Of a DNA stretch of 64,000 bases, positions 6,973 through 57,275 are shown one piece after another. The stretch is from Candidatus Atabeyarchaeum deiterrae (GTDB taxonomy: Archaea; Asgardarchaeota; Atabeyarchaeia; Atabeyarchaeales; Atabeyarchaeaceae): positions 512,001-576,000 of the forward strand of contig CP147780.1 in the NCBI GenBank assembly GCA_037310415.1, written 5' to 3'. Numbering within the stretch: the first letter of the stretch is position 1; every line of letters starts with the position of its first letter. The translations under genes were made by a program, and so were the position numbers. The notes beneath the pieces are model-generated. The model was given only the letters and a program-made list of their open reading frames with translations, was not told the DNA's origin and searched no databases.

Positions 6973-7926
6973 ATGGAACTCAAATCCCTAATCGAGATTA
7001 CGCGTCCGCATAATTGCCTAATGGGCGGGCTCACTTGTGTCGTAGGAGTGCTAGCCACGAACAGGGTTTATTCCCTTAATTTGGGCAGCCTTCCCCCAGC
7101 GACTTTCCTAACAAATCTTGGTTTGCTGTTTCCATCTAGACTTGTTGAAACCCTCGTCCTAACCTACCTCGTGTATGTTTTCATCGCCGCTGCTGGAAAC
7201 ATAATCAATGATATTTACGATGTCGAAGTGGACAAGGTCAATAAGCCGAGCCGTCCGTTGCCACGTGGGGCATTGACACTGAGGCAAGCTAAAGCACTAA
7301 CGGTGATACTTTGGTTCATTGGAGGCGCTCTAGCATTTGCCACGAGTCTGATAGCTGGTTTCATGGCGATGCTGTTTGCCGCATTTGGATACATATATGC
7401 CGCAAGAGTGAAGGCGTTGGGAGTTGTTGGTAATGTTGCGGTGGCTTCAAGCTTCAGTTTTGGGATGTTCTACGGAGCAGTCGTATCGACCGAATCCAGA
7501 AGCTACTTTGCTCTTCTCAGCGCGGATTCTTTCCTGTTTGTGCCGCTTATTATTTGGATCTACTTTTTGACATCCACGTTTGTCCTGTTCGGTAGGGAAG
7601 TCATCAAGGGGATAGAGGATCTACGAGGAGACAAATTGAGGTCTGTGAAGACAATCGCTCGTCAGCATGGGACTAAGACGGCAGCCCTAATTGCGGCAAC
7701 CTCCAACATTCTTGGAATTGTGTTCTTCAATCTGAGTTGGCTCATGGATCAGACGAAGCTTCTGACAGTCCCGTTGTTGGTTATTGGAAGTCTGGCCGTG
7801 CTTGGTTCATCGATAATTGTGTTGAGAAAGTATCAGAACCGAAAGCAACAGGGCAGGGCAAGTCTATTCGATAAGTTGGGGGGGTTCTGCGGACTGCTTG
7901 AGTTCTTACTTGTGAACATCCTTTGA
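6973..7926 (+). CDS. UbiA-family prenyltransferase, digeranylgeranylglyceryl-phosphate synthase
   Basis: RPHN, INDIYDVEVDKVNKPSRPLPRG, REVIKGIEDLRGD. Confidence 0.88.
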   Translation: MELKSLIEITRPHNCLMGGLTCVVGVLATNRVYSLNLGSLPPATFLTNLGLLFPSRLVETLVLTYLVYVFIAAAGNIINDIYDVEVDKVNKPSRPLPRGALTLRQAKALTVILWFIGGALAFATSLIAGFMAMLFAAFGYIYAARVKALGVVGNVAVASSFSFGMFYGAVVSTESRSYFALLSADSFLFVPLIIWIYFLTSTFVLFGREVIKGIEDLRGDKLRSVKTIARQHGTKTAALIAATSNILGIVFFNLSWLMDQTKLLTVPLLVIGSLAVLGSSIIVLRKYQNRKQQGRASLFDKLGGFCGLLEFLLVNIL

Positions 7927-10490: not shown

Positions 10491-11108
10491 ATGGGCAGAG
10501 CAGCAGCGATACTCGCTGGAGGGGAATCGCAAAGACTAAAGACCAAGTCGTTGGTGATGTTGGCCGGAAAGCCGATGATCCTCCGCATAATAGATGAATG
10601 TAGATCTGTTACAGATGAAGTTCTGGTCATCGTCAATTCCCAAGAACAGATGAATTCGATTGCCCGCTTAGTCGGAGAGACAGACGCCAGAATCATAGTA
10701 GATAGGAGTGAATCGTTTCAAAGCCCGTTACTTGGAGCGCATACAGCATTTGAGAACTCGAGGCAGGAACTCACCCTTCTACTTCCTTGTGACACGCCGC
10801 TCATCAAGACGCAAGTCTTGGAGTTACTCTTCTCCATGGTTAGCGGGTGGGACGCAGTCGTTCCCAGGCATCCCAATGGACATATCGAGCCTCTTCATGC
10901 AGTCTACAGAACCGGCGTAGCCCTCAAATCAGCTGAGGATGCTCTTTCGTCTGGCGAGAGGTCCATGAGAGATCTTATAATCAAGCTAAGAGTGCTGTAC
11001 CTCTCAACAGAAACCATAAGGCAGCTCGATCCTGAACTAGAAAGCTTCACGAACGTGAATACTCCTGCTCAGCTGAAACAACTTGAGGCGAGAATCACAC
11101 ATCATTAA
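10491..11108 (+). CDS. mobA: Molybdenum cofactor guanylyltransferase
   Basis: ILAGGESQRL, PLLG, PCDTP, EPLHAVY, NVNTP. Confidence 0.88.
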   Translation: MGRAAAILAGGESQRLKTKSLVMLAGKPMILRIIDECRSVTDEVLVIVNSQEQMNSIARLVGETDARIIVDRSESFQSPLLGAHTAFENSRQELTLLLPCDTPLIKTQVLELLFSMVSGWDAVVPRHPNGHIEPLHAVYRTGVALKSAEDALSSGERSMRDLIIKLRVLYLSTETIRQLDPELESFTNVNTPAQLKQLEARITHH

Positions 11109-46006: not shown

Positions 46007-49000
46007 TCAAGCTCTTTCCTTCAACATCAATCTCGGGGCGATTCCTAAACTTACCAGTTCCTGAAGCAGGAGTTTGAATGCGTATGACATCTCAACTCTT
46101 GAGATTCTTCCTTTATCACCACAAACTCTACAGTAATATCTGTCTCTGCTTCTATCATATGTGGCAAGCATACCGCAATTCTCGCAGACTAGAACTACGC
46201 ATTTGTCTGACTCTTCCAGCAACCTTTCCTTCAGAAGAAGCGTTGCACCGTGTCCAATTAGACAGTCTCTTTCCATCTCTCCGAACCGAAGACCGCCTTC
46301 CCTAGCGCGACCTTCAGTAGGTTGTCTGGTCAGTATCTGAACAGGACCTCTCGCCCGAGCATGCAGTTTATCAGCTACCATATGGTGAAGCTTCTGATAG
46401 TACACTACTCCTATGAACATGTCGACCTCAAACTTTTCGCCATTTACGCCACTATACATGACTTCTTTGCCATTGTACTTGTAACCGAGTTTCTGCAGTT
46501 GGTCATAGAGGTCTGATAGCTTCTCACCTGAGAAAGCTGTTCCGTCGACAACTTTTCCACCTAATGAACCGACCTTTCCGGCAATTGACTCTATGAGTTG
46601 CCCAATTGTCATTCTGGATGGGATCGCATGAGGGTTAATCACCAAGTCGGGAACGACTCCATCTTCTGTAAAAGGCATGTCTTCTTGAGGAACCAGTAGA
46701 CCGAGTACTCCTTTCTGTCCATGACGCGAAGCGAACTTGTCGCCTAGCTCCGGCACTCTCGGGTCCCGAACTTTGGTCTTTACCAAGCGGTTTCCTTCAA
46801 CCGTCTCACCGAGTATCACCGTGTCAATGATACCTGATTCCCCGTATCTCAGATTACTTGAGGTTTCTCTTCTAGTGGGGCTTGGCACTTCAAATTCCGT
46901 ATATTCCTCTAAGAAACGAGGGGGACTAGTCCTTCCTATCAATACGTCTCCGCCTTGTACGTCAGTCTCGGGTTCGATTATCCCATCTTCACTTAGGTGG
47001 CGGTAAACCTCTGCCGCGCGGTATCCTCTAACTGTTCGGTCAGGGATCTCGAAACGATCTTCCTGACCTCCTGGGTATTTTCTCTCCTCTGCTTCATAGA
47101 CACGGAAGAAGGTGGAACGAGCTAGCCCTCTTTCAACTGAGGACTTGTTCATTATTAGGGCATCTTCCATATTGTAGCCAGATAATGAGAGTATTGCCAC
47201 AACGAAGTTCTGTCCAGCGGGCCGCTTGTCGAACTGGATGGCGTCCATGGCCTTGGTTCGAACCATAGCCCTTTGAAGATAGTGAAGAATGTGGGATCGA
47301 GTATCGACTCGCAGCCGGTAGTTGGCGCCAAAAAGTCCCAATGCTTGTTTGGCCATGCCAGCTTCGTAGGTGTTTCTCGGAGACTGATTATGTTGGGGAT
47401 AGGGAATCATCGAGGCACATATGCCTAAGATAGCGGACGCCGCTATTTCCATGTAATTATGTTCGGATGTCAATGAGTCTGGTCCGATCGCCACGAACGC
47501 GTTCTCCTCTTCTTCAGCATCGAGATACTCCATAATCGCATTTCTGACGAGATCGCTGAATCTCCATTCGCGGTTTCTCAGTTTCTCGATGTGTTCGAGG
47601 GTAAGCTTTGGTCTTCCATTTTCTGCGATGATCACGGGGCGTCTAACTCTTCCTGCATCACAGTTGATTTGAATCTCACCAGATTCTCGGTAATAAGCAA
47701 TGTTTGTTTCATTGCTGATCTCCCCTCTTCTGCGGAGAAGGACTACCTGATTTCTGAATCGCTGCGGGTCATTGTGATAGCCGACCAGTCGGCCATTGAG
47801 GAATATTCTAGCTTCCTTTGCGGCATTGCTTTTTCTTGCTTCTTCGATTGACATTATCCCAAGATCTAGTATTTTCCCCTCAACTTGGCTGTCTTCAATT
47901 CCGACAGAGATGTAGGCCATCAATGCCAAGTTCTTGACGAGACCACAATTTGGTCCTTCTGGTGTCTCGCTCGGACATACTCTACCCCAGTGGGTTGGAT
48001 GAAGATCCCGCGCTTCGAAGTGGGGTTGGCTGCGACTTAGAGGCGAGATGATTCTTCTGAGGTGACTTAGTGCCGAAAGAAAGTTATTGCGGTCTAGAAG
48101 TTGGCTGACTCCAGCCTTACCGCCGACCCAGTTCCCCGTGGCAAGGGCGTGTCGCAACCTTTCCGTTATGACATCGGCTCTAACGGCAGTGTGGATACTC
48201 GGAACGCGACCACGTATCGCGTTTCTCTCAATTTGATACTTGATATCCCTGCACAAGTTAAGGAAAGCAACCCTGAATAGACTGACAAGAAGATCTCCAG
48301 CCAATTTCAATCTCTTATTGGCATAGTGGTCTTTGTCGTCAGATTCCCGTTTATGCAATGAAAGTTCGATTAAACGTTCGGCCATCTGGCCAAGATAATA
48401 CGCTTTCTTGAGTCTGGCATCTGAGCTAGTTCCGATATGTGGAAGAAGATACTTGTCGAGAATCTGTTCAGCACGCTTCTGGCGGTACTCCTTGGTCTGT
48501 CCAACGGCAACTCTGCGACCGACGTAGTCGAGGGCGTCATTCTGATCTGCTACCACATCAGCCTCGTGCAGGGTAGGAATAAGTTCGCGAACGACCTCTG
48601 GATCCTCGGAAACGGCTTCGCTTATCTGCTTATCAGTTACTAGCCCCAATGCACGAACTAGTATGGCTAATGGAATCTTACCAGGGACGGATGGAAATGA
48701 CAGACGAAGTGATCCGTCACGACGTCTCTCAAGTGTGACTGGTGCCCTGAATCCGCGGGAAGTTGAGAAAACCTTAGCTACGTGAGTATAAGCTCCTCCT
48801 GAACTCTCTTCGATCAGTATTCTATTTGAAGCCAAGTCTTCTTGTATCACGATCACTCTTTCGGAGCCATTGACTATGAAGTAGCCTCCAGGGTCGTTTG
48901 GATCTTCTCCAACCTTAATTAATTCCTCGGTCTGCATCTTGACCAGAAGACACTTGCTGGACTTCAGCATTATTGGTAGTCGGCCGATGTACTCCTTGGA

Positions 49001-49345
49001 AGGCTTGCTCTCTACTTCAATTCCTGTCCTCTCATCTTTGTGAACGAGAGTCATTTCAAGATAGACTGGTGCTGAATAAGTGAGGTTTCTGATCCGAGCT
49101 TCCATTGGGAAGATCTCTTTTGCAGACCCATCAGCTTCTTTAACAGTCGGTGCTCCAACCTCGATCTTGCCTAGCTTGATATAGTACCCTTCGATATCAG
49201 GCTCGATCTTTCCGACTTCATCAACGATTTGCTGAAGTCTATTCTCCACAAAATCGTTGTACGAATCCAAGTGCTGACGAGCTAATATTCCTTCGTTGAT
49301 GAAGGCTTGCATAACTACCCATGGGTCAAGAAACTCTTTACTCAA
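46007..49345 (-). CDS. rpoB: RNA polymerase subunit B (unsplit Rpo2)
   Basis: [23 protein letters not shown]. Confidence 0.98.
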
Positions 49346-49376
49346 TAAGAATCAATCCCTCTTAGATTCAAGAATC

Positions 49377-49628
49377 CTAATCTCTTGGGATGTATCTATA
49401 AAAAACTGCATACTCACCTGCTGTTTCACTTTTCCTCATTATCTTCACAATGTCACCCTTTTTCGCATTTATCGCAATCATGACGGGATCATCTATTTTG
49501 ATTAGTGGAAGCCACTCTGGCTGGATGTTATACTTCTCAAGCAGTTCCTTTTTCTCTTCCTCAGTGAGAAGAATGTGCTTTGGAACAATCTCGTGCTCAA
49601 TGAGCTTCTTTGGCTCTTGTGAAGACAC
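49377..49628 (-). CDS. rpoH: RNA polymerase subunit H (Rpo5)
   Basis: HEIVPKH, LPLI..DDP, RKSETAG. Confidence 0.96.
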   Translation of the reverse strand: MSSQEPKKLIEHEIVPKHILLTEEEKKELLEKYNIQPEWLPLIKIDDPVMIAINAKKGDIVKIMRKSETAGEYAVFYRYIPRD

Positions 49629-49692
49629 GTCGCTAGACCTCCGTCCATATCTTCAATTGATCTATCATCAATCTCGAATCGTTGTGCAGGTG

Positions 49693-49907
49693 TGGCGGGC
49701 CCGAGGGGAATTTCGGCATATCCTCTTGTAATATGCTATCGAACCCCCGGCCACCGGGTTTCATTACGCTACCCTTGGATGGTTTGTTCTCTCTGGCATT
49801 AGTCGACGTTTAAAAGCCTCACCCTCTGAGGAGCAGTTCACTCCTCTAGAGTCCGGCGCTATAGGCAGACACTGTTTCTTCCTTCTACCTGACTGAGCTA
49901 CGGGCCC
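49693..49907 (-). tRNA. tRNA-Lys(UUU) with four introns (49861-49884, 49818-49852, 49760-49810, 49710-49737); CCA encoded
   Basis: Removing the four BHB-bounded segments gives GGGCCCGTAGCTCAGTCAGGTAGAGCGCCGGGCTTTTAACCCGGTGGCCGGGGGTTCGATTCCCCTCGGGCCCGCCA, a complete cloverleaf. Confidence 0.88.
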
Positions 49908-50034
49908 AAGCAGGCCTCATACACCTGTATTGTCTATGGATAAAATGAATTCCTTATATTCTTTTCTCCTCTTTGGGCGTCTCATTCTTCGAAGCTTCAT
50001 GACCAAAAAGACGACCTCGTCTTACCTTCTCAGG

Positions 50035-50889
50035 TCAGTCTCGGATTGCTTTCCTGATAAGTGGTTCTATCTCCCACCAAGGCGCGATTCTCTTGACGAG
50101 AGGTTCACCGTTTATGCATACTCCCCTGCTCAGTCCACGTTCTAGAACAACTTGCCTATCGTCCGTATTGATGAAGTTTGCTTCAACCTTGTATTTCCCA
50201 ATGTTTCTTCTGACTTCGTCGGCTGACCAACCTGACCATAGACACTGGCTGTTGAAGTAGATGTCCACGACAGGCTTGCCACTTCCCTTGTACTTCTTAC
50301 ATTGCGGGTGAACTAGCTCCGGCTTCTCATTCGAGCCGGTATTCAGGTGGAGAAGCACTCGGCTTCCATCTCGATCAACGTCTTTGAAGCCCATCTTTCT
50401 AAACTGTGCCGCGGGCAAATATGCATAACCTCCGAGCCATTTATCGCCGTCGTAGGCTAGGATACTTACTCCTCCATAGTTTTTTCCCATTTCGACAGCT
50501 CTTTGCACGAGAGCCCTCGCCACACCGTGGCGCCAAAATGGTCTGAGAACCCACATGCAATTTATGAAAAGTGATCCGTTTCCTCTGACAGGCTCCAGAG
50601 CATGCTCGATTGGAACGTACTCTATCAGTCCCACCGGGAAGTTGCCGAGTGTTATGGTTTCCTTGAATTTTGCGTCTTTTTCGCCGAGCAACTCAATTGC
50701 CTTTGAGGAATCTTCGAGCGCAACCGAGATCCGTAATCCTTTCGCCATCATATTTCTAATCCACATTCTTCTGGTTTCCATTGGAGCTTCTAGGGCTTTT
50801 CTCCATTCGCGCGGAATATCTGGCTCATAGCATATTGCCTTAACATAGTCGAGTTCGTTGGGCGAAACCTCTTTGACTAGAATGGCTAT
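50035..50889 (-). CDS. GNAT acetyltransferase with YoaP-like C-terminal domain (start extended to ATA at 50889)
   Basis: GLIEYVPIEHA, FINCMWV, RHGVARAL, SQC; open frame and AGGAGG upstream. Confidence 0.78.
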   Translation of the reverse strand: MAILVKEVSPNELDYVKAICYEPDIPREWRKALEAPMETRRMWIRNMMAKGLRISVALEDSSKAIELLGEKDAKFKETITLGNFPVGLIEYVPIEHALEPVRGNGSLFINCMWVLRPFWRHGVARALVQRAVEMGKNYGGVSILAYDGDKWLGGYAYLPAAQFRKMGFKDVDRDGSRVLLHLNTGSNEKPELVHPQCKKYKGSGKPVVDIYFNSQCLWSGWSADEVRRNIGKYKVEANFINTDDRQVVLERGLSRGVCINGEPLVKRIAPWWEIEPLIRKAIRD

Positions 50890-51007
50890 ACTTCCTCCTG
50901 GCCTCTGATCGTGCAGTAATTCATTAACTACTGTCCGCTATAAAAGCCTAGTCGAACTTCGGCAGCCCCAACCCAATAATAACGATGTCTACAATCCTCA
51001 GACATTA

Positions 51008-51080
51008 CAAAAAAGGGCTTGTGGGTCTGTAAACGGGCATATTTGGGGTTCTAGTCTTTTCCCTAGCTCATTTTGCCCGT
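51008..51080 (+). repeat. Island hairpin repeat, copy 1
   Basis: A6-G run then GTCTGTAA...TAGTCTTTTC; arms ACGGGCA/TGCCCGT and GGGTT/AGCTC. Confidence 0.7.
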
Positions 51081-51502
51081 AATGGTACGGTTGCCAATAT
51101 GACCAACCGTCAGGCAGCGCGCGGAGTTGAGACGATATGCCTTCGTCCAAGATCCGCTATTGGAAGAATCCTCCGAAGCACAGAGCTAGGTCAAGGGACA
51201 GTTATCAGAGGCATAGACAGCATCTCACAAGGTATGCCAAGGCGCAACCTGCTTTGAAATCCACTTGAGTAACCATAACCTAGAGATGTTAGCTCGCACT
51301 AAGAGTATCCCTAAGGAAGAGGATACCGAAGAATACCATAGAAAAGCGTCTCATTCTCTTGTGCGTGCCCAAATCATCGACCGTAAAGAATATGTAAGTA
51401 GTCTTTGATATCACTTGGTGAAGTGCGCTGAAGCAAAGCTTAAGAAAGCCATCGAGACCATATACATCCTGACGGCGCACTAGGAGGGGCGGCGCGCGCG
51501 AG

Positions 51503-52366
51503 GTGACGATTGTGGTCTCCAAAAAACGGAGAATTGTGATCCCCACCCTTGCAGTTGGGTTAATAGTGGTTTTAGGTGTGGTCATAGCGCCCCTCGCACT
51601 CTATCCTAAGTGCGACATTGCTGGTCCGTATTATCACAAAATCTACTCTGCCACCTCGGTCAATGGTTTAAGTTGGACGGTCAATAATACCGTGATTTTT
51701 GATCATGCGTCTGTTCCTGGGGCCGTGTATTTCAACAGCAAGCTCTATCTCTATTTTGTTAATGCGGAGTGTGGTGAGAAATTGAGTGTGGCTATCAGCG
51801 ATAATTACGGTAATAGCTTTGCGGTGTATGACGTAGCGATTTCAGGGTCGAATAGCCCGCGTCCCGTCGATCCGAACCCAATAGTCGATGGCGGGCTAAT
51901 ACGGCTCACCTATCTCGGGAACTTAGGAGGAGACCCGGCTAATATTGTCACCGCCCACTCGTCCGATGGTATTAATTTTGTCGAAGATGCAATCCTATTC
52001 AGTGAAACCAGCATCACAGATCCGGATCTATTTCATTACAGCCCAAGTGAGTGGATTCTGTTCGTTGATCAAGGGAGCACTTTGTTAAAAGCCAATGGAA
52101 CTTCCATATCAACGCCGCTTGTGAAAGATAGCACCTTTAATTTTGCAGGCATACTGTGTTCGACACACTACATTAATAGCAAATTTCACACCTATTATCT
52201 CGGATCAAAAGGGATCTCAGTGGCGGAATATAATAGCAGCGGTTTGACAGTTCTAGCGGAAGATCTGATTACAGGATTTACCGGATTCATCGGAGATCCC
52301 ACCGTAGTAGTGTTTGGTCCTGGCAATTATCTCATGTATTTTAAGCAAACCGATATCCCACCGTAG
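51503..52366 (+). CDS. Membrane-anchored beta-propeller protein (GH32/GH43-like fold, Asp-box-like repeats)
   Basis: N-terminal TM; S.DG..F/W repeats; DPNPI, DPDLF, DPTVV blade motifs. Confidence 0.6.
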   Translation: MTIVVSKKRRIVIPTLAVGLIVVLGVVIAPLALYPKCDIAGPYYHKIYSATSVNGLSWTVNNTVIFDHASVPGAVYFNSKLYLYFVNAECGEKLSVAISDNYGNSFAVYDVAISGSNSPRPVDPNPIVDGGLIRLTYLGNLGGDPANIVTAHSSDGINFVEDAILFSETSITDPDLFHYSPSEWILFVDQGSTLLKANGTSISTPLVKDSTFNFAGILCSTHYINSKFHTYYLGSKGISVAEYNSSGLTVLAEDLITGFTGFIGDPTVVVFGPGNYLMYFKQTDIPP

Positions 52367-52662
52367 TAGTATAGTTGTTAATATACTACCATATGTATTA
52401 GCAACTCTAATAGTATCGGTAACTAAACACCACCAACCAACCGTTTGTCTTGAATTAGCCCCTGCACCACTTCTTCGAGATCCAGCTTAGATGATTGAGA
52501 GTTCTTGTCCATGCCGAGTCTTCTACCTGATTCGGAGGCGTCATCCAGAAATCTGGGTCATTTACTGATAACCTGCTTTCCGTCAAAAGAGTCTTGTCTT
52601 TACCTGAAATAAGCAAAAGCTCGAGAACTGCTTGCTGCGAAATCGTCAAGTGCGCCTATCGT

Positions 52663-52747
52663 CAAAAAAGAGGCTGCACGTCTCTAACCACACATATTTG
52701 TGGTTTTAGTTTTTTCTGTGAGCCCGAAAATGCTGATTTACAGACCT
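52663..52747 (+). repeat. Island hairpin repeat, copy 2
   Basis: GTCTCTAA (52680) pairs with TTACAGAC (52738-52745); centre 52712.5. Confidence 0.78.
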
Positions 52748-52928
52748 CCTGTTCTTCAACACTTCCGCAACTGTGAAAGCGATCTTCCTCATGAACTCCG
52801 AGTTCCCCGCACTTTCCAAGTGCTTTTGGGTTGAACTCGAAACTCCTAGCCTTGGCAAACTTGACCTAAATACACGTGAGAAATGGAAGCGAGTGCTTGC
52901 GTGACCCCGCATCGATCGTATCCTTACG

Positions 52929-53132
52929 TCACAAGCTCCGTTGGTTCTTGAGTATTTCTGAGTGCAGTTTTCCACCAGTCGCCCAATTAGTCTTGGGAGT
53001 CTCGTAGATGATAACGTGAACAGCGTCTCTGGGGACGCCCAAATCTTCAAGCACCTTCGTCATTCCCTCAGCTATCTTCCTCTTGCTGTCTTCAGCCATG
53101 CCAGCCCACATCGTAACTTGTACCAAGGGCAA
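52929..53132 (-). CDS. 4-oxalocrotonate tautomerase family protein
   Basis: Catalytic Pro after Met, VHVIIYE..K.NWATGG. Confidence 0.9.
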   Translation of the reverse strand: MPLVQVTMWAGMAEDSKRKIAEGMTKVLEDLGVPRDAVHVIIYETPKTNWATGGKLHSEILKNQRSL

Positions 53133-53249
53133 TCTAAAGACCTCAAGTTGATATCACCTTTCCAGCATATTAATGCAATCCCCTAGCATCTTGCGGCGCC
53201 TACATATGTCTGTTCATTCATAGTGTTAGCTGCAATAGAGTTGATTGTA

Positions 53250-53867
53250 GTGGCAGACAAGGAGCGCATTGTAAGGAAGGGTTATGATGAGATAGCCCAA
53301 GGTTACCACATTACTAGAAGCAAATTTGATCATGGAAAGGAATTGATGGAATTTGTCGCTCTGCTACCTAAGAATGCCAAGGTCTTGGATGCAGGTTGCG
53401 GTGATGGAGTTCCTGTTGCTGCATTCTTGGTGGAATGTGGTTTTGATGTGACAGGGATTGATTTCTCCGAGGAAATGCTCAAGCTTGCAAGAAAGAATGT
53501 GCCAAAAGCTGCATTCATCAAACAGGATATGAGTAAACTGGATTTTGCAGTCAACTCCTTTGATGGCTTGACTGCTTTCTACTCCATCATTCACGTACCA
53601 AGAGAAAAGCACTTCTCGTTGTTTGAGAGTTTCCATAGAATATTGAAGCCTAAGGGAATAATGTTTGTCTGTATGGGTGCAGATGAATGGGAAGCAACTG
53701 ATGAGTATCTGGGGACAACAATGTTCTGGAGTCAATACAACCCTGAGAAATCTTTGCACCTTGTGAAAATTGCTGGTTTTGAAATAATCTCCGACCAGAT
53801 TCTGATTAGAGGTGGAGAAAAACACTACTGGATTATGGCCAAGAACAAGAAATATCATGAAACGTGA
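53250..53867 (+). CDS. Class I SAM-dependent methyltransferase
   Basis: VLDAGCGDG, GIDFSEEML, RILKPKG. Confidence 0.88.
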   Translation: MADKERIVRKGYDEIAQGYHITRSKFDHGKELMEFVALLPKNAKVLDAGCGDGVPVAAFLVECGFDVTGIDFSEEMLKLARKNVPKAAFIKQDMSKLDFAVNSFDGLTAFYSIIHVPREKHFSLFESFHRILKPKGIMFVCMGADEWEATDEYLGTTMFWSQYNPEKSLHLVKIAGFEIISDQILIRGGEKHYWIMAKNKKYHET

Positions 53868-54016
53868 AGTAGAGAACGCAACTTGACACTGAGCAAACTA
53901 CCACGCATAGACTGCGAATATCGTTTTCCGTCGCAGACGCGCTTATAGTGTCTTGGCCGAGTTCCCGTGAGTCTACTTGAACATGCTTGTTTCATTGGTA
54001 ACTTCTGTTTGAGTCT

Positions 54017-54105
54017 GGTCGCCAAAAAAAGGGGACTGTAGGTCTCTAAGCACACATGTTTGGGATCCTAGTTTTTTCTGTGTTCGCGAACTTGCGTTCT
54101 CACGT
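54017..54105 (+). repeat. Island hairpin repeat, copy 3
   Basis: GTCTCTAA (54042)...TAGTTTTTTC; GTTTG/CGAAC stem, centre 54074.5. Confidence 0.78.
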
Positions 54106-54205
54106 ACTCCTCTCTCTCCATTACCTCATTACCGACAGGGCAAACGGTCGGGGCGGCGTACCGTCGTTTTCTCTGTGAACTCTCCTTAAGAACAAGCACA
54201 AATCA

Positions 54206-55150
54206 TCATAGCCTGGATAGTAGCTCAAATGTGTTTTCTTTGAATATTCTTTCTTTTTCAAAATCAGAGAAATAGGCGCAAGAAACTAAACTCTCGACCG
54301 ACATTTTGGTTACAATCGCAGGAGCATAGGGAAAGTCACTACCGAACAGAATATGCATAGAATCAACAAACTCTCGGAGTCCGCACAAGGCAAACGTACT
54401 GGTTGACAAAGCAGTGTCATAATAAAGCTGCCGAAAATGAGATACTGCTCCTTTCGGGGCCGTTCTTCCACTATTGGGTATAGTAAGACCGGTTAAATCA
54501 ATCCGGAACGCAAGAAAGGGAATCGTCCCCCCGGCATGTGAAAGTATGAACTTAATATTGGGAAATCTTTTCAATGTACCCGAATAAACTAAATTCGTAG
54601 CTGCCCGAGTGGTGTCGAAAGGAAATTCCAACATGGGCACGGGATAAGTGAAATTGGTCTGCGTTTGGCTTGGACTTGTCGGGTGGATAAACACTACCGC
54701 CTTTCGGCGATTCAGTTCTGCCATCAATTCATCGAATCGAGAATCTCCAAGGTACACTCCGCTATAATTTGTGAGCAACGCAACGCCATCCAACTCGAGT
54801 TCATCGAGTGCGCGATTCGTTTCAGAAAGCGATTCTGAGAGATATGGGAGAGGGATTGTCGCAAACGCTCCAAAACGATCTGGGTGATCTGCCACGATAC
54901 GCTCCATTTCGTTATTTACCATTTCTGCAAGGTGGACGGCAAAATCTCTGTCTCCAAAATCAACGCTGGGGCTCGAAAGAGAAAGAAAGGCCTTTCCGAT
55001 GTGGTTGCGGTCCATCACATTCAAGGATAACTCTGGATTCCACTGGGGAAAAACCACGCCATCTCCTCCTTTTATGGCGCGTCCGGCCAGTTCGTGGATA
55101 TAATCAGAGGGTAAAATATGGTGGTGCACGTCGTATATTTGCTGTGGAAT
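54206..55150 (-). CDS. Amidohydrolase-2 family decarboxylase (ACMSD/6-methylsalicylate decarboxylase-like; start extended to ATT at 55150)
   Basis: YDVHHH, FIHP, SHAGG..PF, YYDTA, FGSDFP. Confidence 0.88.
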   Translation of the reverse strand: MPQQIYDVHHHILPSDYIHELAGRAIKGGDGVVFPQWNPELSLNVMDRNHIGKAFLSLSSPSVDFGDRDFAVHLAEMVNNEMERIVADHPDRFGAFATIPLPYLSESLSETNRALDELELDGVALLTNYSGVYLGDSRFDELMAELNRRKAVVFIHPTSPSQTQTNFTYPVPMLEFPFDTTRAATNLVYSGTLKRFPNIKFILSHAGGTIPFLAFRIDLTGLTIPNSGRTAPKGAVSHFRQLYYDTALSTSTFALCGLREFVDSMHILFGSDFPYAPAIVTKMSVESLVSCAYFSDFEKERIFKENTFELLSRL

Positions 55151-55406
55151 ACTCCTTCACTCTCCCGAGTCGAACGATATTACTGATGCTTTAACGCTAT
55201 CGGGAATGTAGATTTGATTCCGAATACCGTTAGGTGCAGCAATTTTGACTAATTTTCATAATATCCGCGCTTCAGATTAACCTAGCGGTATAAGTATGAG
55301 TTCGTGCCCTTTCCAATCCTCCACACATTCAAGCGGAAACAAAAGCTTGGAAGAAGAAGAGTCAATTTCAATAGACTCATTCTGACGGAAATTCTTATTT
55401 GGCATT

Positions 55407-55500
55407 GGTCGCCGAAAAAGAAGGCTGTAGGTCTGTAAGAACACAGACTTCCGCTTCTAGTCTTTTCGATAAGCGAGACTAATCAAGACCACACCTATGG
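55407..55500 (+). repeat. Island hairpin repeat, copy 4
   Basis: CTGTAGGTCTG pairs with CACACCTATGG; inner CGCTT/AAGCG, centre 55463.5. Confidence 0.78.
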
Positions 55501-55620: not shown

Positions 55621-55772
55621 GCCCTGGTGGTGCAAGCCTTCTCCGAAGGTCCGAAGAAGACCACGAAGCGGCTAACATTTGGGTCTGTCACACCCAAGAC
55701 GCGGGTTCGAGAAAGATCACCGCAATGCCTGCTGACGGCATACGATGATTTTATAAAATCCCGCCCAGGGCG
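55621..55772 (+). tRNA. tRNA-Asp(GUC) with two non-canonical introns (D arm ~55634-55665; T loop ~55712-55758)
   Basis: Acceptor GCCCTGG/CCAGGGC plus discriminator G, anticodon arm TGGGT-CTGTCAC-ACCCA, T stem GCGGG/CCCGC; exact junctions uncertain. Confidence 0.8.
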
Positions 55773-55880: not shown

Positions 55881-56849
55881 TCATCCTTCTTGCTGCTCAT
55901 TTCTTCCTCGGGATCTTGCTCTTGCCCAGTAGACTTTTGTCCAGTATCCCCGCTCTGGAACAGTGATACCAAGTTTCTTGCATTTTCTGCCCGTGGACTT
56001 GGTGTGTGAAACGTGGTATTTGACTGCGATTTGCCTCAATGGCATTTCCTGAACTAGTTTCTCCAAATCCTCCTTTGTGATTTTTCTCCATTCACGTTGA
56101 AGCATATTTCTTTTCCGAACCTGTTCAATCGTGCAATCCTCTTTAGCCCTCGACAACAATTCTTCTTGTTCGCAGGGGGACCAACGTTTTCTAGGCATAC
56201 TATTCGCGTAGTTCTTCATCATCTTGTTAAATAGTTCCGGACCCAGACACATCATGTAGTTGGTTCCATTTAGCTTTCTGCCGTAGATTTCTTTTTGGCG
56301 TTTGTCCACGTAGATCTTGTAGGGGAGATCGAATCTTTTCTTGACTTGTCCTAAGAAACGCTCGCTGCCTGATGAGATCATCGTCGTGTTTCGTCTTCCG
56401 TCGCCATCAAAGTATCCTAGGAGGAATGCGAGTTCTAGACTAGTGCGGGGTAGCTTGGGATACTCGATGGTTTTTGATTTTCTGAATTTAAGACCGTGTC
56501 TGATCAGGTCGTTGCCCACCTCCATACAGGTGAACCTGATCATTGCTTGCCTGTGTCCTGCCTCATCGGTCGGGTATTCCTTCTTGCTTTTATTGAGCTG
56601 TAGGGCATCGCAGAACTTGTCGATGGTGTCTTCGTCTCTTATTTTGAGCTTTAGCCGGATTTCTGCCCTATTTGGGTATTCCACTAGGTAGCCGTCAGCG
56701 TAGAGGAATCCGAGCCAGTATGCTTTCTCTTTGGTGTTGATTGTCTCGAAGAAGTTGATCTTTAGATTCGAATGTACTGTATGTGCCGCCCACACTTTGT
56801 ACCAATGCGCCGTTGAGGCGTTTCTATGAGGTTGTCTGAGCGTCTTCAT
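55881..56849 (-). CDS. Free-standing double-motif LAGLIDADG endonuclease with C-terminal HTH-like tail
   Basis: AYWLGFLYADG and LAFLLGYFDGDG; no intein splice motifs. Confidence 0.8.
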   Translation of the reverse strand: MKTLRQPHRNASTAHWYKVWAAHTVHSNLKINFFETINTKEKAYWLGFLYADGYLVEYPNRAEIRLKLKIRDEDTIDKFCDALQLNKSKKEYPTDEAGHRQAMIRFTCMEVGNDLIRHGLKFRKSKTIEYPKLPRTSLELAFLLGYFDGDGRRNTTMISSGSERFLGQVKKRFDLPYKIYVDKRQKEIYGRKLNGTNYMMCLGPELFNKMMKNYANSMPRKRWSPCEQEELLSRAKEDCTIEQVRKRNMLQREWRKITKEDLEKLVQEMPLRQIAVKYHVSHTKSTGRKCKKLGITVPERGYWTKVYWARARSRGRNEQQEG

Positions 56850-57170: not shown

Positions 57171-57275
57171 TGGCGGGCCCGGAGGGAATTGAACCCTCGA
57201 CCACCAGCTGGCTCCCCTGACGGGAAGAAGCAAGGTTAGGGGGCTGGCGCCCTATCCTGACTAGGCCACGGGCCC
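57171..57275 (-). tRNA. tRNA-Arg(CCU) with a canonical 27-nt intron (57210-57236); C at position 33; CCA encoded
   Basis: GGGCCCG acceptor, CCAGC-CCCCTA|A-GCTGG anticodon arm, GAGGG-TTCAATT-CCCTC T arm. Confidence 0.88.

Follow-up and report, generated by a model that had tools for sequence, protein, structure and literature searches.

A probable gene-cassette array with a sequence-conserved junction site between two tRNA promoters of Candidatus Atabeyarchaeum deiterrae

What are the repeats that separate the accessory genes between the tRNA-Lys and tRNA-Asp genes of the Asgard archaeon Candidatus Atabeyarchaeum deiterrae, and do they bound units that are exchanged as cassettes? The window analysed here is a stretch of 64,000 nucleotides (NCBI GenBank assembly GCA_037310415.1, contig CP147780.1), which corresponds to C1:512001-576000 of a genome (G000) consisting of the single contig C1 of 2,756,679 bases. 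An earlier sequence-only reading had described the repeats as four co-oriented conserved hairpins in which pairing is kept despite sequence change. It had proposed that they are folded single-stranded DNA recombination sites of an integron-like or HUH/REP-like gene-capture system, or else a structured RNA or terminator family. We conclude that the region is probably a chromosomal gene-cassette array, lying between the divergent promoters of tRNA-Lys and tRNA-Asp and shaped by site-specific recombination at a site with the core TCTTTTC, the enzyme being supplied in trans. The capture architecture of the sequence-only reading is retained in this account; the hairpins are not.

Searching for the 37-nt pattern GTCTSTAA-N5-CA-N3-TT-N4-T-N2-TAGTYTTTTC returned four matches in the window (51025, 52680, 54042 and 55431, all on the + strand) and none across 100 shuffles. 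With up to three mismatches allowed, the same four were the only matches in the whole of G000, and all of them fall inside one 4.5-kb stretch. The pattern search thus agrees with the coordinates given before and identifies these repeats as the sole full copies in the genome; the reported spacings of 1655, 1362 and 1389 bp, the ungapped alignment and the upstream A run are all correct. In our genome collection the class is represented by three species, and among 400 Asgard genomes clustered copies were confined to this family, with single matches elsewhere at the rate of a reversed control pattern. Matches in Acinetobacter and several metagenome contigs lack the left box and were set aside as chance, as were 22 matches in viral contigs (0/22 fit the repeat profile).

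For alignments we used 17, later 19, full copies from G000, its close relative G001 (CP147779, 'Promethearchaeati archaeon SRVP18_Atabeyarchaeia-1'), a third genome with the repeat (G002), and the metagenome contigs L034, L036, L037, L040, L075 and L079. The consensus of 19 copies reads aAAAAA.aaG..TGtag GTCT.TAA.cAcaCAT.tTTG.g.TTCTAGTCTTTTC, often with GGTCGCC on its 5′ side. The boxes of the site are 80-100% conserved, as against only ~74% identity of the flanking genes between G000 and G001. It is the primary sequence that is conserved: the A run, TGTAG, an imperfect 13-6-13 palindrome (GTCTNTAA...TTCTAGTC), and TCTTTTC. The site that closes a cassette is ~60 nt long and consists of (GGTCGCC)-A5-7-GAAGG-NTGTAG followed by the palindrome GTCTNTAA-N16-TTCTAGTC, and the 7-nt core TCTTTTC joins it to the next cassette. 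Every junction has the layout [conserved arm ... TTCTAG][TCTTTTC][right flank].

Four types of right flank can be told apart. Type I, TCCTSTTTRGGCRTCTCATTC, is the commonest, and four of five genomes also have it 3′ of the primary chromosomal site. Type II is a non-coding stretch of 60-190 nt containing TTACAGACCT, an inverted left box located ~21 nt from the core. As had been remarked correctly, TTACAGACCT on the 3′ side of copy 2 exactly complements AGGTCTGTAA in copy 4; the element belongs to the right flank common to copies 2 and 3 and two G001 copies. A reverse-strand open reading frame across the type-II flank (52706-53050), helix-turn-helix-like by eye, has neither a Pfam match nor a homologue, and the flank was treated as non-coding. 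Between R4 and L037, homology is limited to 55385-55473. In base composition, the G+C content of the array showed no clear deviation.

A half-site, GAATTCCTTATAT-TCTTTTC, overlooked in the sequence-only reading, lies ~50 nt upstream of tRNA-Lys and resembles attB or attI: conserved chromosomal DNA ends in it and the first cassette starts. It is identical through TCTTTTC in G000, G001, L036, L075 and L079, after which the sequences diverge. Positions 66-116 of the repeat model match window 49960-50009 by nhmmer. The repeat and the chromosomal site have ~13 nt in common (TT.TA.TCTTTTC), and beyond these we found no significant similarity between the repeats and the tRNA-Lys or tRNA-Asp regions. 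A likeness between the left half of the repeat and the sequence upstream of tRNA-Lys was considered and discarded, local alignment being not significant against shuffles (p=0.03-0.22).

The closest comparison is with contig L079, found through a 96% homologue of the propeller protein in the window. The two sequences are 98.7-99% identical along window 46111-49966, apart from an intein in rpoB, and this identity ends exactly after the TCTTTTC of GAATTCCTTATAT-TCTTTTC. Beyond it, L079 continues with a Fer4 module and then a DUF6114 module, each followed by a repeat, and with the propeller module, and the window with a GNAT gene, R1, a 285-nt remnant and the propeller module. At the place of the first window cassette, then, L079 holds the Fer4 and DUF6114 modules next to a 99% identical flank. 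Close strains differing by whole inter-repeat units had been proposed as a check on the cassette idea, and this pair differs in that way, with an exact junction. The propeller module itself (window 51346-52540) is only 93.7% identical to its L079 counterpart, and since the flank is 99% identical the history of the module differs from that of the flank. The tautomerase/methyltransferase module of the window was not seen between the propeller and amidohydrolase-like genes of L079. The rpoB intein of L079 (1840-3447; Intein_splicing match; product of 1638 amino acids) sits at window 47946-47950; rpoB of G000 (46007-49345, 1112 amino acids) has none.

Read data, consulted as assembled contigs (Logan), added run X7, from a relative at ~92-95% identity. 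One X7 contig spans the amidohydrolase module (window 54096-55445 at ~94%) from the right of R3 to the middle of R4, and past that point it reads TATTTGTGGTTCT and not GACTTCCGCTTCT. Because the right half is switched at R4, R4 of X7 is a hybrid site. In the same run, R2-like cores occur in at least three different flank contexts.

The slot, in the order rpoB/rpoH/tRNA-Lys ... tRNA-Asp/LAGLIDADG/PIN-ATPase/HisRS, holds one to six repeat copies in five other records, and the cargo is unrelated in each. In the window rpoA is also in the flank, and these flanking genes mark the DNA as archaeal. Further examples of the slot were found by following the adjacent LAGLIDADG gene to its orthologues. 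In G001 six copies, including a degenerate one, lie at C1:510508-517067 between rpoH and HisRS/PIN-ATPase. They accompany genes for a 3-hydroxyacyl-CoA dehydrogenase, an Rce1-like protease, an MNT/HepT toxin-antitoxin pair and a luciferase-like oxidoreductase, and unknowns. L075, a 99.8-kb contig with the whole slot, has three copies and SDH_protease, DUF4185 and MFS cargo; in L036 the cargo is a methyltransferase together with a ferredoxin-like gene; in L040 two copies accompany DUF4382 and further genes; and the single copy of G002 stands among ICMT, hydrolase and GNAT genes. Copies thus bracket variable genes in every relative examined, and the cargo within the conserved slot is wholly different. 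This wholesale difference among relatives is seen directly, as are the repeats, their restriction to the slot and the exact boundary at TCTTTTC. Two observations on single cassettes and contigs may be recorded here. The MNT/HepT (nucleotidyltransferase/HEPN) pair makes up one G001 cassette (L014 11682-12400). On contig C128 of G002 a TnpB-like gene (Cas12f1-like_TNB; L015 740-1984) lies 1.6 kb from the repeat, and it is absent from the other arrays.

Several results weigh against a cassette array built by site-specific recombination. No recombinase gene was found in or beside any of the six arrays examined. Some strain differences are not clean cassette swaps: homology between the window and L079 is lost at 52540, ~110 nt before R2, where L079 has no canonical site. 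The arrays of G001, L075 and L078 have genes on the tRNA-Asp side that no repeat closes. In the assembled contigs no excised circle was shown, and the X7 joint that 'goes back' lies outside the repeat. The exchange point is ambiguous as well: flank comparison places it at TCTTTTC, and the X7 hybrid and copy A of the second locus described below place it in the palindrome spacer, ~20 nt to the left. A joint 49989->54025, with 30 letters on its short side, was rejected as probably reflecting repeat similarity.

In an alternative account the repeats would be functional intergenic elements (for instance two-way transcription stops, insulators or regulator sites), and no dedicated recombinase would be needed: after DNA uptake, cassettes would turn over by ordinary homologous recombination between the 60-110-nt repeats and conserved flanks. 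Such an account agrees with the lack of a recombinase gene in any array, and crossovers at varying points would fit both the hybrid R4 of X7 and the ragged break at 52540. It also fits the T runs that the element carries on both strands (A5-7 on one, TYTTTTC on the other) and the terminator-like score of R2. In archaea a T run alone suffices for termination. We nevertheless regard this explanation as unlikely. Five genomes, among them the pair with 99% identical flanks, have the chromosomal junction at one and the same position, directly after TCTTTTC, and T-run termination leaves the invariant TGTAG/GTCT/TTCTAG boxes across genera unexplained. Moreover, no copies occur at the other convergent gene pairs of the genome, and repeats 1 and 4 sit between divergent genes, where no stop is needed. 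A side function in termination is conceivable, given the T runs on both strands.

We then turn to the fold. Over the T run, the proposed stem has 52.9% paired cells against 50.3% after shuffling, and 51-53% when slid by one column (17 copies). RNAalifold returned 0 consensus pairs for the repeat copies, and single-strand DNA folds of 10 copies gave z-scores from +1.1 to -2.3 with shapes that differ from copy to copy. The sole real symmetry is the imperfect 13-6-13 palindrome, GTCTCTAACCACA-CATATT-TGTGGTTCTAGTC, whose inner seven pairs are 78% paired against 74% in shuffled and 35-52% in slid alignments. Its covariation is weak and could stem from one or two events, and only about half the copies have a hairpin. 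The repeats are therefore not conserved hairpins, and that reading is to be dropped. With it goes the folded single-stranded DNA site, which has neither a conserved fold nor significant covariation. The sequence-only reading had itself named absent covariation as evidence against it; this absence removes its structural part, and the cassette part passes.

Could the repeats act as RNA instead? As small structured RNAs or cis-regulatory leaders, they would be expected to be co-oriented and conserved in sequence, as they are, and the reverse strand does offer a short conserved stretch, the palindrome and T6. Yet Rfam 15 gave no match to the repeats at the gathering score or even at E<=5, there is no consensus structure, and no reading frame can be conserved, given the indels in the A run. 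The wholesale replacement of cargo between copies would also be left unexplained, and we consider an RNA function very improbable. A structured RNA or terminator family fares no better, since Rfam is silent and the terminator-like score is reached by one of the four window copies, R2 only.

The array recalls integrons in many respects. Clusters of attC sites, mostly without IntI, have been reported in ~8% of Asgard genomes, where integrons and integron arrays minus the integrase (CALINs) are described as enriched (Ghaly et al. 2022, PMC9668308). In both systems one recombination-type site closes each cassette of one or two genes, cassettes stack at a fixed primary site, the cargo consists of small accessory enzymes and a toxin-antitoxin pair (that of G001), and content varies between close relatives. 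Toxin-antitoxin pairs are common in large chromosomal integron arrays. Like CALINs, the array has no integrase in cis, and since CALINs also lack IntI, its absence alone does not exclude one.

The differences lie in the site. The R′′/R′ boxes (RYYYAAC / GTTRRRY) are missing from most copies; AAC...GTT is found only in the AACCACA...TGTGGTT subfamily, other copies having AAG...CTT, AAG...GATC or AAA...GGTT. Conservation resides in the sequence and not in the fold, the reverse of the situation in attC. The array core is TCTTTTC in place of G|TTRRRY, with the junction after TAGTCTTTTC rather than at G|TT. Cassette genes occur in both orientations and must bring their own promoters, unlike those of integrons, and the array is anchored at a tRNA-tRNA promoter region and not at intI-attI, with no IntI-type recombinase beside it. 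Lacking R boxes and a conserved fold, and with no IntI next to it, the array is not a canonical integron, and a CALIN is very improbable.

Which enzyme would act on such sites? The PF00589 match closest to the G000 array, C1:497401-497943, is more than 60 kb away, and there was none near the G001 array or in L036, L040, L075 and L079. Y1 transposases, serine recombinases and several integrases are present in the genomes, at unrelated places. The sole tyrosine recombinase common to all three genomes is a XerA homologue of 304 amino acids, whose best solved relatives are 4A8E and 5HXY. Either XerA or an integrase of a mobile element as the enzyme is a guess only.

The same survey bears on the HUH/REP mechanism of the sequence-only reading and on a related possibility, that the array consists of tandem single-strand or rolling-circle transposon-like units (IS91/Helitron-like or IS200/IS605-like) that start with TC(TTTTC) and end with a subterminal hairpin and ...CTAG. 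Helitron ends are 5′-TC and 3′-CTRR, with a hairpin 10-12 nt from the end. The units do end in ...hairpin-N6-CTAG, the next one starting with TC, which is reminiscent of that arrangement, and genes for Y1 transposase and TnpB exist in these genomes. Set against this, the hairpin shows no covariation and is lacking in about half of the copies, and the elements are confined to one slot and not scattered. The Y1 genes are at least 30 kb from the array, without a fixed common place. No Y2_Tnp or Helitron-like Rep was found, PF04986 and PF14214 having no matches in G000-G002, with the control genomes equally silent in both searches. An HUH/REP mechanism is not borne out by these data, and transposon-like units seem quite improbable.

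The gene-cassette array in the tRNA-Lys/tRNA-Asp promoter region can be given a candidate mechanism, in which we infer circular intermediates, the enzyme and the exact strand-exchange point. A circular cassette would carry one complete arm-core-arm site, like attP or attC; many cassettes start with a second conserved arm, TCCTSTTTRGGCRTCTCATTC. The partner of the circle in recombination would be either the chromosomal site GAATTCCTTATAT-TCTTTTC at the tRNA-Lys promoter or any junction already present, so that cassettes could stack, swap and drop out. Serial insertion of circles would leave the observed layout B-O-P′ ... P-O-P′ ... P-O-B′. The recombinase would not be encoded by the array and would act in trans, most likely as a tyrosine recombinase, either the host XerA homologue or the integrase of a coexisting mobile element.

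The right edge of the array may preserve the other half of the target. The right flank of R4 contains ATAAG, which is CTTAT of the primary site in inverted complement, and the right flanks of R4 (GATAAG), L037 and L040b (TATAAG...AAGGAATT and TCCAAGGAATTC) are inverted copies of the primary-site CTTAT and GAATTCCTT. The empty site may thus be a palindrome around TCTTTTC, which we take as a lead, since that 9-mer is fairly common in the genome. Tentatively, and with less confidence than in the array itself, we propose an undescribed cassette-capture system. Its site would be a double-stranded element of ~110 nt defined by sequence (purine run, 13-6-13 palindrome, TCTTTTC core and second arm) and not a folded attC. 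Its target would be a palindromic chromosomal site lying between the promoters of two tRNA genes, and a housekeeping enzyme like XerA, or else an unrecognised recombinase, would run it in trans.

Other modular systems share some of these traits. In accretion arrays and cis-mobilizable elements (CIMEs), islands built by tycheposons and additive flexible genomic islands, the repeat is a copy of the 3′ end of the target gene. Accretion arrays and CIMEs share with the present array, as read here, direct att-like repeats and a series of site-specific insertions at a single chromosomal hotspot next to a tRNA gene. As in CIMEs, the modules are flanked by att-like sites, are present or absent between strains and have no integrase of their own, and they would be mobilised in trans. 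In contrast to those systems, the array repeat copies neither the target tRNA nor a gene end: it is unrelated to either tRNA, with only the ~13 nt in common with the chromosomal site. The insertion point lies upstream of two tRNA promoters and not in a 3′ end, and 0 of ~20 modules examined keep an integrase. Xer-dependent modules, namely integrative mobile elements exploiting Xer (IMEX) and the pdif modules of Acinetobacter plasmids, have palindromic sites and no recombinase of their own. They resemble the array in their small recombinase-free cargo and palindromic boundary sites, and host Xer could move the array modules. The array palindrome is 13-6-13, however, and not 11-6-11, its sites are all co-oriented whereas pdif sites alternate, and the mapped boundary lies outside the palindrome. 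The main text of a survey of mobile elements in these genomes, which covers 18 elements, does not include this array (PMC11529989). What is new here is the type of site and the tRNA-promoter anchor.

The features of the array are listed in Table 1.

Table 1. Repeats, cassettes, anchors and related elements (window positions unless another record is named)
Feature	Position	Strand	Content or basis
Primary half-site GAATTCCTTATAT-TCTTTTC	49947-49966	+	attB/attI-like; conserved chromosomal DNA ends, first cassette starts
Repeat R1	51001-51061	+	A run, TGTGG, GTCTGTAA...TTCTAG, TCTTTTC; pattern and profile match
Repeat R2	52656-52716	+	Core variant TTTTAGTTTTTTC; pattern and profile match
Repeat R3	54018-54078	+	Pattern and profile match
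Repeat R4 with GATAAG	55407-55473 (repeat to 55467)	+	GATAAG: possible right arm of the original chromosomal site
Cassette 1	49967-51061		Type-I flank; GNAT acetyltransferase 50035-50889 (-), Pfam Acetyltransf_1; R1
Segment X	51062-51345		Between R1 and the propeller module
Propeller cassette	51346-52716		Secreted beta-propeller-like protein 51503-52366 (+); closed by R2
Tautomerase/methyltransferase cassette	52717-54078		Type-II flank; 4-oxalocrotonate tautomerase-like 52929-53132 (-); SAM methyltransferase 53223-53867 (+); R3; Pfam
Amidohydrolase cassette	54079-55467		Type-II flank; Amidohydro_2 54206-55129 (-); R4; Pfam
Type-II flank copies	52717-52900, 54079-54215; L014 (G001) 7325-7517, 10650-10843		Conserved extension 3′ of four repeats
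tRNA-Lys(UUU), four introns	49693-49907	-	5′ end and promoter face the array; left anchor
tRNA-Asp(GUC), two introns	55621-55772	+	Right anchor
LAGLIDADG protein, free-standing, basic helix-turn-helix tail	55881-56849	-	Same place in relatives, 65-82% identity
Partial repeat copies	G000 C1:1840661-1840713 and 1842600-1842648 (L041 8662-8714, 10601-10649, minus strand)		Overlooked in the sequence-only reading

The cargo of the window is as first described: a GNAT, a secreted beta-propeller-like protein with no Pfam match, a tautomerase with a methyltransferase, and an Amidohydro_2 protein. Segment X is probably a cassette remnant that has lost its own closing site, judging by the comparison with L079: there a repeat directly abuts the propeller module, where the window has 285 nt between them, and the type-I flank of the module is cut down in the window to GCGTCTCATTC at 51346. 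Homologues of the propeller protein at 80-87% occur in unrelated contexts, and distant ones have BNR_2 or GH43 domains. Part of the cassette methyltransferase (window 53458-53919) is covered very deeply, to as much as ~4000 at individual positions, by contigs of two wetland runs at >=85% likeness. Far more abundant organisms must therefore carry near-identical copies of the segment, through recent transfer perhaps or as a conserved motif.

Both anchors are genuine tRNA genes. The placement of the array upstream of tRNA-Asp holds, as ARAGORN accepts tRNA-Asp(gtc) once its two introns are removed, a call made for 1474 splice variants; the 5′ part of the gene is conserved in G001, L075, L076, L077 and L078. 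Spliced to exons of 23/8/7/22/17 nt, the other anchor is accepted as tRNA-Lys(ttt), and it adjoins rpoH in G001, L036, L075 and L079 as well. ARAGORN found 0 tRNAs in the unspliced window because the tRNA genes are rich in introns. Three tRNA genes around the array are interrupted, the two anchors and one at 57171-57275, and the introns of tRNA-Asp are at non-canonical places. Both anchors were missed by ARAGORN and Rfam until they were spliced by hand.

The LAGLIDADG protein beside tRNA-Asp was considered as the array enzyme and rejected: its family has 2444 Asgard homologues, and the syntenic copy of G001 is truncated although the G001 array is the largest. L040 has two LAGLIDADG genes near its repeats.

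Partial copies of the repeat are present at a second locus of G000. They accompany a TPR gene and a gene for a secreted, membrane-anchored protein of 447 amino acids (no Pfam match), both of which are missing from the syntenic CBS-AHSA1 gap of G001. From this comparison, the second locus looks like cassettes inserted at a secondary site.

Taken as a gene-cassette array, the locus is a hotspot without its own recombinase, at which single accessory genes are exchanged at one exact base, next to the RNA polymerase operon and tRNAs as core genes. With its defined site and an empty site that can be reconstructed, it provides a concrete, testable substrate usable for finding the enzyme, and the site is a candidate tool for site-specific insertion in archaea.

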